IMG/VR virus record: IMGVR_UViG_2548876698_000001 | Location: 1 to 6,824 of that record | Source: a virus | Taxonomy: Duplodnaviria; Heunggongvirae; Uroviricota; Caudoviricetes | Reading direction: 5' to 3' (one strand) | DNA length: 6,824 nt | Shown: one piece after another, positions 1-6,000 of the stretch | How the letters are laid out: each line of letters begins with the position of its first letter | Position numbering within the stretch: the first letter of the stretch is position 1 | Position numbers: made by a program

Positions 1-3000
1 GGGTGGGCTAACGATATCCGCCTGATGCGTGAACGTGACGGACGTAACCACCGCGACATGTGCGTGCTGTTCCGCTGGGCATGCCAGGACAACTTCTGGT
101 CCGGTAACGTGCTAAGTCCGGCCAAACTCCGCGACAAGTGGACCCAGCTCGAAATCAACCGTAACAAGCAACAGGCTGGCGTGACAGCTGGAAAACCAAA
201 ACTCGACCTGACAAACACTGACTGGATTTACGGGGTGGATTTATGAAAAACATCGCCGCACAGATGGTTAACTTTGACCGTGAGCAGATGCGTCGGATCG
301 CCAACAACATGCCGGAACAGTACGACGAAAAGCCGCAGGTACAACAGGTAGCGCAGATCATCAACGGTGTGTTCAGCCAGTTACTGGCAACTTTCCCGGC
401 GAGTCTGGCTAACCGGGACCAGAACGAACTGAATGAAATCCGCCGCCAGTGGGTTCTGGCTTTCCGGGAAAACGGGATCACCTCGATGGAACAGGTTAAC
501 GCAGGAATGCGCGTAGCCCGTCGGCAGAATCGACCATTTCTTCCATCACCCGGGCAGTTTGTTGCATGGTGCCGGGAAGAAGCATCCGTTATCGCCGGAC
601 TGCCAAACGTCAGCGAGCTGGTTGATATGGTTTACGAGTATTGCCGGAAGCGTGGCCTGTATCCGGATGCAGAGTCTTATCCGTGGAAATCGAACGCGCA
701 TTACTGGTTGGTTACCAACCTGTACCAGAACATGCGGGCCAATGCGCTGACTGACGCGGAATTACGACGCAAGGCTGCCGATGAACTGACCTGTATGACA
801 GCGCGAATTAACCGTGGTGAGACGATACCTGAACCAGTAAAACAACTTCCTGTCATGGGCGGCAGACCTCTAAATCATGTTCAGGCGCTGGCGAAGATCG
901 CAGAAATTAAAGCTAAGTTCGGACTGAAAGGAGCAAGTGTATGACGGGCAAAGAGGCAATTATTCATTACCTGGGGACGCATAATAGCTTCTGTGCGCCG
1001 GACGTTGCCGCGCTAACAGGCGCAACAGTAACCAGCATAAATCAGGCCGCGGCTAAAATGGCACGGGCAGGTCTTCTGGTTATCGAAGGTAAGGTCTGGC
1101 GAACGGTGTATTACCGGTTTGCTACCAGGGAAGAACGGGAAGGAAAGGTGAGCACGAACCTGATTTTTAAGGAGTGTCGCCAGAGTGCAGCGATGAAACT
1201 GGTATTGGCGGTATATGGAGTTAAAAGATGACCATCTACATCACTGAGCTAATAACAGGCCTGCTGGTAATCGCAGGCCTTTTTATTTGGGGGAGAGGGA
1301 AATCATGAAAAAACTAACCTTTGAAATTCGATCTCCAGCACATCAGCAAAACGCTATTCACGCAGTACAGCAAATCCTTCCAGACCCGACCAAACCAATC
1401 GTAGTAACCATTCAGGAACGCAACCGCAGCTTAGACCAAAACAGGAAGCTATGGGCCTGCTTAGGTGACGTCTCTCGTCAGGTTGAATGGCATGGTCGCT
1501 GGCTGGATGCAGAAAGCTGGAAGTGCGTTTTTACAGCAGCATTAAAGCAGCAGGATGTTGTTCCTAACCTTGCCGGGAATGGCTTTGTGGTAATAGGCCA
1601 GTCAACCAGCAGGATGCGTATAGGCGAATTTGCGGAGCTATTAGAGCTTATACAGGCATTCGGTACAGAGCGTGGCGTTAAGTGGTCAGACGAAGCGAGA
1701 CTGGCTCTGGAGTGGAAAGCGAGATGGGGAGATCGGGCTGCATGACTATCAAATCAAATACGCCAGCACACGACAAGGACTGCTGGCAAACGCCGCTTTG
1801 GCTTTTTGATGCACTGGATATTGAGTTTGGATTCTGGCTGGATTCGGCAGCGAGCGACAAAAATGCTCTGTGTGCTCACTGGCTAACTGAGGCCGACGAC
1901 GCGCTCAATTCTGAGTGGGTAAGCCACGGTGCAATCTGGAATAACCCACCGTACAGCAATATCAGGCCGTGGGTGGAAAAAGCCGCTGAGCAGTGCATAC
2001 AACAGCGACAGACGGTAGTTATGCTTGTACCAGAGGATATGTCAGTCGGATGGTTCAGCAAGGCTCTGGAGAGTGTTGACGAAGTTCGTATTATCACTGA
2101 TGGACGGATTAATTTTATCGAACCATCGACAGGGCTGGAGAAGAAGGGAAACAGCAAAGGTTCCATGCTGCTGATTTGGCGACCGTTCATCAGTCCTCGA
2201 CGGATGTTTACTACCGTATCCAAAGCGGCATTGATGGCGATCGGGCAGGGCGTCAGGAGGGCAGCATGAGACGCAGCGACGAAGCATCACCGACATAATC
2301 TGCGAAAACTGCAAATACCTTCCAACGAAACGCTCCAGAAATAAACGCAAGCCAATCCCAAAAGAATCTGACGTAAAAACCTTCAACTACACGGCTCACC
2401 TGTGGGATATCCGGTGGCTAAGACATCGTGCGAGGAAAACAAGGTGATTGACGCGATGATTTATTCGGGGCTATATTCCTCACGCGCCAGCAAAATCTGG
2501 CGTCGGGATTAGCACCCCGGATATCGAAACGGTGCATAACCGCGCTGGCGGTTTTTTTATGCGCTAAGCACAGTCACATTCGCGATTTATGGCGGGCTGT
2601 GTGGGGGAGCCGAAAGGCTCGCCGGATGTTTCGACCGGTAGTGCTAACCCCGCACAGTTCGCCACCACGATGATTAGCACCTGACGGTGGCGAGGTAAAA
2701 ATAATCGAAACGCGAGGTCATTATGGCTGTTCAAATTTCTGTCGAAAACCTTTCCCCTGTTACCTATAACCAGATCCCCGTAATTACTACTGAACTGTTG
2801 GCTCACCTTTACGGAACAAAAATCAAAAACATTTCTGATAACTTTCTGAACAACACGACGCGATTCATGCCCGGAAAGCATTACTTTAAAATTGAAAAAA
2901 ACGAATTACGCGAGTTTAAGAACAGACCCGAAACAATCGGGTTAGTTGGTAAAAATGCCCGCTCCCTCATCCTCTGGACAGAACGCGGAGCAGCCCGTCA

Positions 3001-6000
3001 TGCAAAAATGCTCGAAACCGATCAGGCGTGGGAAGTGTTCGAAAAACTGGAAGACTGCTATTTCAGCCAGGGCGAGAAAAATACTGGCAAACAAGAGAAG
3101 AAGCTCAACGGGCTTTCCGCAAAAGAAACAGACAGCCTTGTATGGCTGTGGGATTATGCCAACCGCTCACAGGCATTGTTCCGTGAGTTGTATCCCGCAT
3201 TAAAACTGATTCAGTCTGGCTATTCCGGCATATGCCACGACTACGGCTATGAGTTCTCGTATATCATCGGGAGGGCGAGGGGCGTTTTAATTAATCACAC
3301 GCGGGATATAGATATTTATGAGCCTGACGGGCCGACGAACCTTCTGGCATGGGAAAGGCTTAAGAACAAAGAGTTGCCGCCTTCACTGCATCGCTACTGA
3401 CAATTGACAACTTAACAAACCCAGCTTCGGCTGGGTTTTTTATTGCTGAATTTTCAATGTGAGAGGACATGACAATGAATGAGCTGATAAATAGCAATGC
3501 CATCAAAATGACAAGCATTGAAATCGCTGAGTTGGTGGGAAGCCAACACGGTAATGTCAGAATATCAATAGAACGTCTGGCAAAGCGTGGGGTGATTCAA
3601 CTTCCTTCAATGCAAAAAGTTGAAAATAAACAAACAATTAGCCCTGACAAATTCACAAGCGTGTATATATTCGAAGGCGAACAAGGTAAGCGAGACAGCA
3701 TTATTGTCGTCGCTCAGTTGTCGCCGGAATTCACCGCTCGCCTTGTTGACCGCTGGCGAGAACTCGAAGGGGCAACCGCGAAAATACCACAAACCTTTTC
3801 TGAGGCATTGCGCCTTGCGGCCGACCTTGAAGACCAGAAGGCTGAACTGGAGAAACAGCTTGCTCTCGCAGCACCTAAAGTTGAGTTTGCCGATCGAGTT
3901 GGCGAGGCCAGCGGAATTTTGATTGGAAACTTTGCAAAGGTTGTTGGTATTGGTCCAAACAAACTGTTTGCGTGGATGCGCGATCACAAAATCCTTATTG
4001 CTTCAGGTGCCCGGCGCAATGTGCCAATGCAGGAATATATGGATCGCGGCTATTTCACAGTGAAAGAAACAGCGGTCAATACAAATCACGGAATACAGAT
4101 ATCGTTCACCACAAAAATCACCGGGCGTGGTCAACAGTGGCTGACAAGAAAGCTGCTAGATAACGGAATGCTTAAAGTAACAGGGGAGGCTGCTTAATGG
4201 CTAAACCAGCGCGAAGGAAATGCAAAATCTGTAAGGAATGGTTTCACCCGGCATTCTCAAATCAGTGGTGGTGCAGCCCGGAACACGGAACTAAATTAGC
4301 ACTCGAACGACGAAATAAAGAACGCGAAAAGGCGGAAAAAACAGCAGAGAAGAAACGACGACGAGAGGAGCAGAAACAGAAAGATAAAATTAAGATTCGA
4401 AAACTCGCCTTAAAGCCCCGCAGTTACTGGATTAAACAAGCCCAACAAGCCGTAAACGCCTTCATCAGAGAAAGAGACCGCGACTTACCATGTATCTCGT
4501 GCGGAACGCTCACGTCTGCTCAGTGGGATGCCGGACATTACCGGACAACTGCTGCGGCACCTCAACTCCGATTTGATGAACGCAATATTCACAAGCAATG
4601 CGTGGTGTGCAACCAGCACAAAAGCGGAAATCTCGTTCCGTATCGCGTCGAACTGATTAATCGCATCGGGCAGGAAGCAGTAGACGAAATCGAATCAAAC
4701 CATAACCGCCATCGCTGGACTGTCGAAGAGTGCAGGGCCATCAAGGCGAAGTATCAGCAGAAACTTAAAGACCTGCGAAACAGCAGAAGTGAGGCCGCAT
4801 GACGTTCACAGTAAAAACCATTCCTGACATGCTCGTTGAGGCATATGAAAATCAGACCGAGGTAGCCAGAATACTGAACTGTAGTCGCAACACGGTCAGA
4901 AAATACACTGGCGATAAAGAAGGAAAAAGACACGCTATTGTCAACGGTGTTCTTATGGTTCATCGCGGATGGGGTAAAGATACTGATGCGTGATATCCGG
5001 CAGGTTCTTGAGCGCTGGGGTGCATGGGCGGCAAATAACTATGAGGATGTTACATGGTCGCCCATTGCTGCCGGATTTAAGGGACTGATCCCCGAAAAAG
5101 TAAAATCACGTCCACAGTGTTGTGACGATGACGCGATGATTATATGCGGGTGTATGGCTCGCCTTAACAGGAACAACAGCGATCTGCATGACTTGCTGGT
5201 TGATTATTACGTGTTGGGGGAGACGTTCATGGCGCTGGCACGGAAACATGGGTGCTCTGACACCTGCATAGGTAAACGCCTTCACAAAGCGGAGGGGATT
5301 GTTGAAGGCATGCTGATGATGCTGGGAGTGAGGCTTGAGATGGATCGGTATGTTGAGCGTGAATTGCCGGGAGGGAGAACCTCTGTATTTTATCAGCGAA
5401 AAAATAGTTTACGATCGTAAAAATCTGCATATCATGATAAGAGTGGTTACATTGCCACGCTGCTTAACCCGCCGATGCGCGGTTTTTTTTGTACCCAGAA
5501 TCCTGTGAGCTATACGGAAAGTACACAGAAAGGAAGGTGCGACCACAATTAATAACAAAATCTTAAAAATTGCACATGGCACTATTAGTTTTCTAAATAT
5601 TGTGTATTTTTTGTATTGCAGGATGACCCTGTAACGAAGTTTGCGTAACAGCATTTTGCTCTACGAGTTTGCCAGCCTCCCCCAGTGGCTGGCTTTTTTA
5701 TGTCCGTAGCGTCAAAGCAGCAATGTCGCTGGGGCGTCGTGCAATTGGCGTTGAGCTGGAGACTGAACGTTTTGAGCAGACGGTCAGGGAAGTACAGGAT
5801 TTAGTCAGTCAGAACGGATGATATTGCAGAATTAACCGGGTATCAGGTACGCCCCGAAAATTTTAAATGTCTCACAATTCAGACGGTTGACAGTTGTCTG
5901 GTTTGCGGGGAGTTTGTTAAAAGAAACTGGCATGGTGAATCCCCCTGAGCGGAGGGGCATATCAGCGCAGGTGTTTCTACTCTATCCTTTCTGTGCGGGT

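Follow-up and report, generated by a model that had tools for sequence, protein, structure and literature searches.

Do the two genes that stand between ninE and ninG in a lambdoid prophage form a cassette with a function of its own, or do they belong to systems that have already been described? The question was raised by the IMG/VR virus record IMGVR_UViG_2548876698_000001, of which positions 1 to 6,824 were analysed here; this whole stretch of 6,824 nucleotides (nt) is called the window. A first-pass annotation had read the two genes, here named ant and roi, as a two-gene cassette of an ORF6N protein and a Rha/KilAC protein, and had proposed that they were the seat of a poorly characterised accessory function. 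The obtained results confirmed both open reading frames (ORFs), at 2723-3400 and 3469-4197, and favoured a different explanation. The region probably comprises two separate known modules, namely a C4-controlled antirepressor unit (2448-3444) and the nin gene roi. The identity of Ant to AnrP and to P22 Ant, the phenotype of a deletion in phage phi24B and the curated Rfam families of the leader all argue against a poorly characterised function. The ant-roi pair of Stx-type lambdoid prophages is already known and largely characterised, and little is added here as discovery. The features on which the argument rests are listed below.

2448-2477, plus strand: sigma-70-like promoter of the IsrK-C4-ant unit, -35 TTGACG (2448-2453), 18-nt spacer, -10 TATATT (2472-2477)
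2484-2558, plus strand: IsrK small RNA (RF01394), with two 5' hairpins, the putative decoys a1 and b1, and a terminator
2509-2515, plus strand: a1, TTAGCAC, in IsrK
2524-2531, plus strand: b1, TCGAAACG, in IsrK
2585-2669, plus strand: C4 antisense RNA (RF01695), with a closing stem of 17 base pairs (bp) and an ACCA 3' tail
2627-2634, plus strand: b', TGTTTCGA, in the loop of C4 hairpin 2
2641-2647, plus strand: a', GTGCTAA, single strand of C4 on the 3' side of hairpin 2
2674-2718, plus strand: predicted C4 target region, by complementarity to C4, with a2, the GGTGGCGA block, b2 and the Shine-Dalgarno sequence
2674-2680, plus strand: a2, TTAGCAC, in the ant leader
2705-2712, plus strand: b2, TCGAAACG, in the ant leader
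2723-3400, plus strand: ant, antirepressor of 225 amino acids, N-terminal domain ORF6N, C-terminal domain P22_AR_C (Pfam, PHROG)
3417-3444, plus strand: intrinsic terminator closing the ant unit, AAACCCAGCTTCGGCTGGGTTT and a T-run (terminator scan and fold)
3469-4197, plus strand: roi, 242 amino acids, Rha-like N-terminus and KilAC/ANT C-domain (Pfam, PHROG 63)

The IsrK-C4 leader and its types

The dedicated regulatory leader that had been supposed to precede ant was identified as an IsrK-C4 unit. Three Rfam families matched it, namely isrK (RF01394, 2484-2558; 76.6 bits against a gathering cut-off of 50), c4-a1b1 (RF03163, 2471-2523; 50.6 bits against a cut-off of 46.7) and C4 (RF01695, 2585-2669; 75.1 bits against a gathering cut-off of 45), and nothing else in Rfam was significant between 2400 and 2800. 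The promoter, which scored 10/12 in the consensus scan, overlaps the ninE stop codon with its -35 hexamer, and the isrK match begins 7 nt on its 3' side. In Gifsy-1, numbering from the Rfam isrK start agrees with the published numbering from the mapped transcription start. Both hexamers were kept, with a diverged spacer, in eight distant leaders, among them those of Stx phages, APSE-7 and Yersinia and Klebsiella phages.

The IsrK segment ends in an intrinsic terminator, with a stem at 2538-2553 followed by T7, to 2558. The minimum free energy fold of C4 (-49.1 kcal/mol, z-score -5.7) reproduced the family consensus and left unpaired a 9-nt loop and an 8-nt single strand, which hold b' and a', respectively. 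IsrK and the ant leader each hold one set of exact complements of a' (7 nt) and b' (8 nt), and in the ant leader b2 stops 3 nt short of the ant Shine-Dalgarno sequence (GAGG, 2715-2718). The start region of ant reads ATTATGGCT, and the target leader is unstructured apart from these elements (z-score 0.08). The names of the a and b sites follow P1 usage, as taken from the annotated P1 record (NC_005856), where the loop contains b' and b2 borders on the ribosome-binding site. The APSE-7 record (LR794146, 2141-2165) names them the opposite way, calling the loop element a' and the single strand b'.

Two further observations concern the leader. The first is an element between a2 and b2, GGTGGCGA at 2686-2693, of the form GGTGG(C/T)GA, which was invariant in 12 of the 12 aligned leader types with diverged flanks. 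This block complements the closing stem of C4 along its 3' strand (2658-2666); before the transcript is processed, a competing helix could arise from it, or it could serve as a processing signal. The second is a 31-codon ORF (2589-2684), which opens with an ATG on the 5' arm of the C4 stem and closes with a TAG within a2. It is the positional counterpart of Gifsy-1 orf45 and of Nil2 ORF57, and it ends short of the ant start, unlike both.

The covariation of the leader elements was examined in 80 IMG/VR loci encoding Ant relatives (72-100% identity), together with annotated phages. C4 of the window kind was carried by 70 of the 80 loci and sRNA-Xcc1 by nine; in the last one the upstream sequence was too short. 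Among 75 Ant-linked loci, the loop and single-strand elements of C4 occurred in eight combinations, and three further types, from APSE-7, Klebsiella phage phi13.3 and an Stx2a phage, brought the number to at least 11. In every type the a1/a2 and b1/b2 target copies changed in step with C4, examples of covarying pairs being GTGCTAA/TTAGCAC, ACGCCAA/TTGGCGT, GTGCAAA/TTTGCAC, GTTCCTAA/TTAGGAAC and ATGCCAA/TTGGCAT. An all-against-all matrix of C4 against targets placed the cognate score at the top of each row and each column. The a' and b' elements assort independently, one a' being seen with different b'.

The presence, order, geometry and covariation of the leader elements are thus established as features of the sequence. 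Beyond them, we infer that C4 acts in trans to repress ant at its ribosome-binding site, that RNase P processes C4 and that Ant binds CI directly; the role given to Roi is likewise inferred. The first module (2448-3444) would be a moron-like, self-contained unit with its promoter, IsrK, C4, the C4 targets, ant and a terminator. The promoter looks constitutive, and most transcripts would end at the IsrK terminator to give an IsrK of 75 nt. Read-through transcripts and N-antiterminated transcripts from pR would run on through C4 and ant. The predicted C4 RNA, a very stable hairpin RNA resembling a transfer RNA (tRNA), would pair through b' and a' with b2 and a2 in the ant leader. Since b2 lies only 3 nt from the Shine-Dalgarno sequence, this pairing would block ribosome binding and keep Ant off in the lysogen. 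IsrK holds identical a1 and b1 copies with which it would compete for C4, so that a rise in IsrK may free the ant ribosome-binding site. When N-modified transcription from pR floods the region, Ant would be made too; it would then counteract prophage repression and speed the late-transcription switch after induction. The second module would be roi, a separate nin gene read from pR and encoding an HK022-type Rha/KilAC DNA-binding protein.

The isrK-C4 leader was found in 1759 of 5426 complete E. coli genomes, in 2932 copies altogether and with at most seven copies per genome. Neither IsrK nor C4 is usually marked when Stx phages or RefSeq E. coli genomes are annotated, and therefore Ant looks unregulated when it is regulated. 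It is conceivable, if on balance doubtful, that IsrK/C4 leaders form a combinatorial 'second immunity' code, in which at least 11 a/b types assort without regard to which ant and roi alleles accompany them, a C4 of the same type silences co-resident ant genes and the IsrK sponge releases all of them together. If true, such a code would bring type-specific coupling or insulation of Stx and non-Stx prophage induction, and hence of toxin release. The E. coli strains with up to seven such modules would be the setting for cross-talk between the IsrK/C4 types.

A different RNA was observed in place of C4 in nine IMG/VR loci (for example L062 2370-2453, L071 415-498 and L002 2715-2798) and in Nil2 antB. 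This leader, sRNA-Xcc1 (RF02221), has its own upstream promoter-like sequence and a short terminated RNA, and it seems to be a second, analogous kind of RNA leader serving the ant gene family.

The Ant protein and experiments on its relatives

The Ant protein of P22 inactivates repressor, as has been shown experimentally. In the window, the Ant protein matched ORF6N at residues 12-96 (E 2.7e-20) and P22_AR_C at residues 126-197 (PF10548, E 1.3e-23) in Pfam, and PHROG 377, 'anti-repressor Ant' (6.5e-80). The C-terminal half (about residues 115-225) had been described as unassignable in the first-pass annotation, and the profile search now places it in a well-known family. The assignment of the two proteins to antirepressor-type families was upheld.

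The two halves of Ant resemble different proteins. Residues 1-116 are 93% identical to Gifsy-1 AnrP (STM2616), the C-terminal halves being unlike, and residues 122-225 share 83% identity (86 of 104 residues) with P22 Ant 197-300. With its AnrP-like N-half joined to a P22-Ant-like C-half, the protein is a chimera of two studied antirepressors. The phi24B Ant differs from the window Ant at only three of 225 residues. A protein named 'P22AR C-terminal domain-containing protein' from E. coli at NCBI is 100% identical to Ant, and 6445 homologues were found; the best 120 of these were all at least 81% identical, and for this reason no deeper alignment was obtained. A scan of the NCBIfam library gave zero matches.

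Each of the two genes has its own ribosome-binding site, GAGG for ant and GAGAGGA for roi, and a strong terminator separates them, as had been noted before. This terminator (3417-3438) consists of a 9-bp stem and a T-run, with a folding energy of -15.1 kcal/mol and a z-score of -4.1. It occurred as an exact 22-mer in 83 of the 90 loci compared, and its core hairpin CCCAGCTTCGGCTGGG with the T-run is also found on the 3' side of ant in P22.

These matches bear directly on the proposal that the ORF6N protein has an accessory activity not yet characterised, for instance in anti-defence or in interference between prophages, exerted through a novel C-domain. We consider this very improbable, as the C-domain is not novel but the P22_AR_C domain shared with P22 Ant, the N-domain is that of the prophage-inducing AnrP, and the near-identical phi24B gene has an induction phenotype and no superinfection phenotype. 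Room for the proposal comes from the biochemical role of P22_AR_C, which is not yet established, and from the solved structures, none of which matched Ant or Roi by sequence above chance level (syncytin and spectrin being the kind of match returned). Trans-acting antirepressors, which are known to couple the induction of co-resident prophages (PMC3121763), also lend it some credit. In PADLOC, Ant residues 16-107 (the ORF6N domain; window 2723-3040) weakly matched three models of the candidate PDC-S05 (24-27 bits, about 27 at best). However, this match is at the level of the domain only, and the candidate defence system is unvalidated.

Experiments on relatives have been published for two of the systems concerned. 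In Gifsy-1, translation of anrP rose about 140-fold when IsrK was provided in trans, and the prophage was induced by AnrP (Hershko-Shalev et al. 2016, PMC4825925). The same study reported the compensatory mutants G28A/C162U and G31A/C159U (PMC4825925). When the Gifsy-1 RNA is numbered from the Rfam isrK start, G28 and G31 fall in a1 and C159 and C162 in a', and the published compensatory pairs are therefore those that join a1 to a' in the C4 system. The first AUG of Gifsy-1 'orf45', at A107, falls within the closing stem of C4, on its 5' strand. The 'orf45' fragment of about 80 nt (PMC4825925) is most simply read as C4 itself. The Gifsy-1 IsrK and P1 C4 mechanisms use the same base pairs, and the two literatures can therefore be read together. 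The trans-activation data fit IsrK as a competitor for C4, and they fit equally the authors' model of alternative structures in cis. In the window, the ORF at 2589-2684 stops 39 nt before the ant start, so the orf45-anrP coupling cannot apply there as published.

In phi24B, the deletion of ant lowered pR'-lux to 27-56% of wild type after norfloxacin, complementation brought it back to 64-82%, and superinfection was unaffected (Fogg et al., PMC3064807). This late-promoter phenotype is indirect evidence that the window Ant may, like P22 Ant, bind and inactivate the prophage repressor. Ant affects the speed of the late, toxin-expressing switch of Stx prophages, and the RNA types may therefore matter for toxin output in multi-prophage strains.

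These data could also be explained if Ant were a DNA-binding transcription factor that directly activates early or Q-operon transcription and does not bind repressor. ORF6N is a KilA-N-like DNA-binding domain, Gifsy-1 AnrP raised the transcripts of the entire antQ operon, and the target of phi24B Ant was left open by Fogg et al.; the P22 Ant known to bind repressor carries another N-domain, P22_AR_N. Nevertheless, we judge this explanation unlikely. The C-domain and the terminator are common to the bona fide repressor-binding P22 Ant, the C4-controlled genes of P1 are repressor-binding antirepressors according to the annotation of the P1 record, and no target DNA site is known.

A C4-controlled antirepressor unit is the reading preferred here, and the points that weigh against it are the following. 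The window locus is known from its sequence only. The AlphaFold2 model of Ant, built with 16 close homologues, reached a predicted local distance difference test score of about 80 in the N-domain; the C-domain was modelled as helical with low confidence (below 50), and Foldseek against the PDB gave no fold match with E below 0.9. The N-domain of P22 Ant is P22_AR_N (PF10547), and the window Ant has ORF6N in its place. The authors of the Gifsy-1 work invoke alternative structures in cis and an orf45 translation that is coupled to anrP (PMC4825925). According to Fogg et al., phi24B Ant acts 'not necessarily' on CI, and the deletion was a cassette insertion that possibly affected downstream genes and was partially complemented (PMC3064807).

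The roi gene and the surrounding nin region

The C-domain of Roi (residues 128-230) matched KilAC/ANT (PF03374, E 1e-32), a Pfam family common to P1 Ant1 and KilA. Its N-terminus scored 25.7 bits against Rha (PF09669), a helix-turn-helix DNA-binding domain, which is under the cut-off of 29.9, and the N-terminus of HK542 Roi was likewise under it. Of the domains named in the first-pass annotation, ORF6N and KilAC/ANT were recovered, and the Rha-like N-terminus stayed below the Pfam threshold. Roi is 81% identical to HK542 Roi over its full length (243 aligned columns) and differs from phi24B Roi at three of 242 residues. Two in-frame ATG codons, at 3469 and 3475, follow the roi Shine-Dalgarno sequence (GAGAGGA, 3461-3467) with spacings of 1 nt and 7 nt, respectively, and HK542 Roi starts at the equivalent of 3475. 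As both the spacing and the HK542 start favour 3475, the annotated start of the 242-amino-acid roi is probably two codons too long.

The TAA stop of roi and the start of ninG share one base (TAATG, 4195-4199), and scanning and inspection of the interval between the ant terminator and roi (3400-3468) gave no promoter beyond chance. Given this overlap and the lack of an evident promoter, roi appears to belong to the nin operon and to be transcribed from pR. The strict IHF consensus WATCAANNNNTTR had zero matches in the window. HK022-type Roi is reportedly a DNA-binding protein that modulates lytic growth in an IHF-dependent manner, and a Roi-binding site is said to lie beside an IHF site inside the HK022 gene. 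To our knowledge, the biology of Roi rests on one paper from 1996. That paper, by Clerget and Boccard, is drawn on here through PMC3430580 and PMC4587872, which cite it.

The steady association of the two genes raises the possibility that Ant and Roi act together as one two-component unit. The co-occurrence of the pair is close, with roi directly downstream in 79 of the 80 loci of Ant relatives and the remaining locus ending after 582 bp. The order recurs in APSE-7, with isrK and C4 followed by a Bro-N and then a Rha protein, and vB_YpM_41 has C4 before a single ORF6N-Rha fusion of 380 amino acids. Such a unit would nevertheless be divided by the strong and conserved terminator between ant and roi, and the one-base overlap of roi is with ninG rather than with ant. 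The identities of the two genes vary independently (ant 100% with roi 89%, ant 77% with roi 99%), an additional ORF separates them in P27-type phages, and in HK542 roi is present but ant and C4 are missing. The superfamily undergoes rampant domain shuffling, and natural IS629 insertions in roi were reported in some inducible Stx2a phages (PMC4587872). The linkage of ant and roi is strong in one direction only, and a joint function appears quite improbable to us. We therefore retain roi as a module separate from the antirepressor unit.

The window as a whole corresponds to the P-to-Q (nin) segment of a lambdoid, Stx-phage-like prophage, according to the Pfam gene assignments. The neighbouring genes are as follows.

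243-944: P (Pfam)
1302-1745: NinB (Pfam)
1742-2269: Dam-family methyltransferase (Pfam)
2265-2447, plus strand: ninE remnant, frameshifted by a 1-nt deletion after codon 3
4197-4802, plus strand: ninG, the downstream boundary of the cassette (Pfam NinG, 1.6e-90)
4799-4993: NinH (Pfam)
4938-5420: Q (Pfam)

The position of the two genes between ninE and ninG, and the absence of ninF, were as first described, with the difference that ninE is frameshifted and not intact. The window reads ATGAGACG-CAGCG and phi24B and VT2-Sakai read ATGAGGCGACAGCG, so that the window has lost one nucleotide, and the frame ends early with a stop at 2298. The frameshifted ninE is either a pseudogene or a sequencing error. 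In HK542 the order is ninE-ninF-roi. The region 2400-4300 was matched in 403 phage records, in 157 of which a single place covered at least 80% of it; hundreds of phage records annotate the pair as ant/roi, and RefSeq has names for both proteins.

Other features were observed beyond Q. A strong match to Rfam STnc100 (148 bits) lies at 5901-6101 on the plus strand, on the 3' side of Q, and towards its 3' end the window is similar to the sialate esterase (NanS) region found in Stx phages and other lambdoid phages. ARAGORN found no tRNA genes in the whole window, unlike in the Q-stx interval of phi24B.

Comparison with known systems

The C4 antisense RNA of the P1 and P7 immI region (c4-icd-ant1/ant2) shares its Rfam family and its fold with that of the window. 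In P1 immI, the order and spacing of a1, b1, c4, a2, b2 and the start codon are those of the window, and in both cases specificity would be set by short a/b elements that vary between relatives. In P1/P7, RNase P cuts a longer precursor to produce the 5' end of C4; the window shows a tRNA-like closing stem and an ACCA tail. However, P1/P7 immI has icd, an ORF that C4 represses at translation and that ant expression requires, and the only ORF between C4 and ant in the window (2589-2684) begins within C4 and is uncoupled; P1 Icd has no Pfam family, and its sequence itself was not compared with the window. P1 Ant1/2 are of the KilAC type (PF03374 ANT in Ant1), whereas the window Ant combines ORF6N with P22_AR_C and KilAC sits in Roi. 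Unlike P1 immI, the window has its module in a lambdoid nin region, shows no C1-type operator at the promoter and carries the a1/b1 segment as a separately terminated small RNA, IsrK.

The isrK-orf45-anrP locus of Gifsy-1 has the same order of promoter, IsrK, C4 and ant as the window, with isrK, C4 and c4-a1b1 directly upstream of anrP. The verified IsrK:orf45 pairs of Gifsy-1 map onto a1:a', and their counterparts in the window (2509-2515 and 2641-2647) are perfectly complementary; the a/b sequences of Gifsy-1 are of another specificity type. AnrP, with 187 amino acids, is without P22_AR_C, unlike the window Ant. Gifsy-1 orf45 overlaps the anrP start (AUGA), whereas the window ORF ends earlier; leaders of the Sakai and Nil2 type do have the ATGA. 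In Gifsy-1 the locus is found on the downstream side of Q with isrJ after it, whereas the window locus lies in the nin region and is followed by roi.

P22 Ant resembles the window Ant in its C-terminal 104 residues (83% identity) and in the same terminator hairpin. The control of the P22 immI region (mnt-arc-ant, with the sar RNA) is different, as neither arc or mnt ORFs nor an antisense RNA of the sar type was found beside the window ant, where control appears to be of the C4 type.

Phages of the phi24B/Min27/933W family are near-identical, with DNA 99% identical over 2400-4300 and the same gene order as the window (ninE, ant, roi, ninG, ninH, Q). They differ from it in little more than the ninE frameshift of the window, and their published annotations leave IsrK and C4 unmarked. 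HK022-type phages share the position of roi in the nin region, and roi there follows ninF without ant or C4 (HK542).

Two further phages show related arrangements. In the Yersinia phage vB_YpM_41 (2424-3566), an IsrK-C4 leader is followed by a protein of 380 amino acids with ORF6N at 12-96 and Rha at 155-239, so that one polypeptide joins the N-domains that Ant and Roi carry separately. In the APSE phage paper, isrK and C4 have already been annotated before a Bro-N/Rha gene pair.

Taken together, as far as its sequence can be compared, the window is a mosaic of pieces from P1/P7 immI, Gifsy-1, P22, phi24B and HK022, which would operate as an antirepressor module under C4 control and is a strict member of no single prototype.

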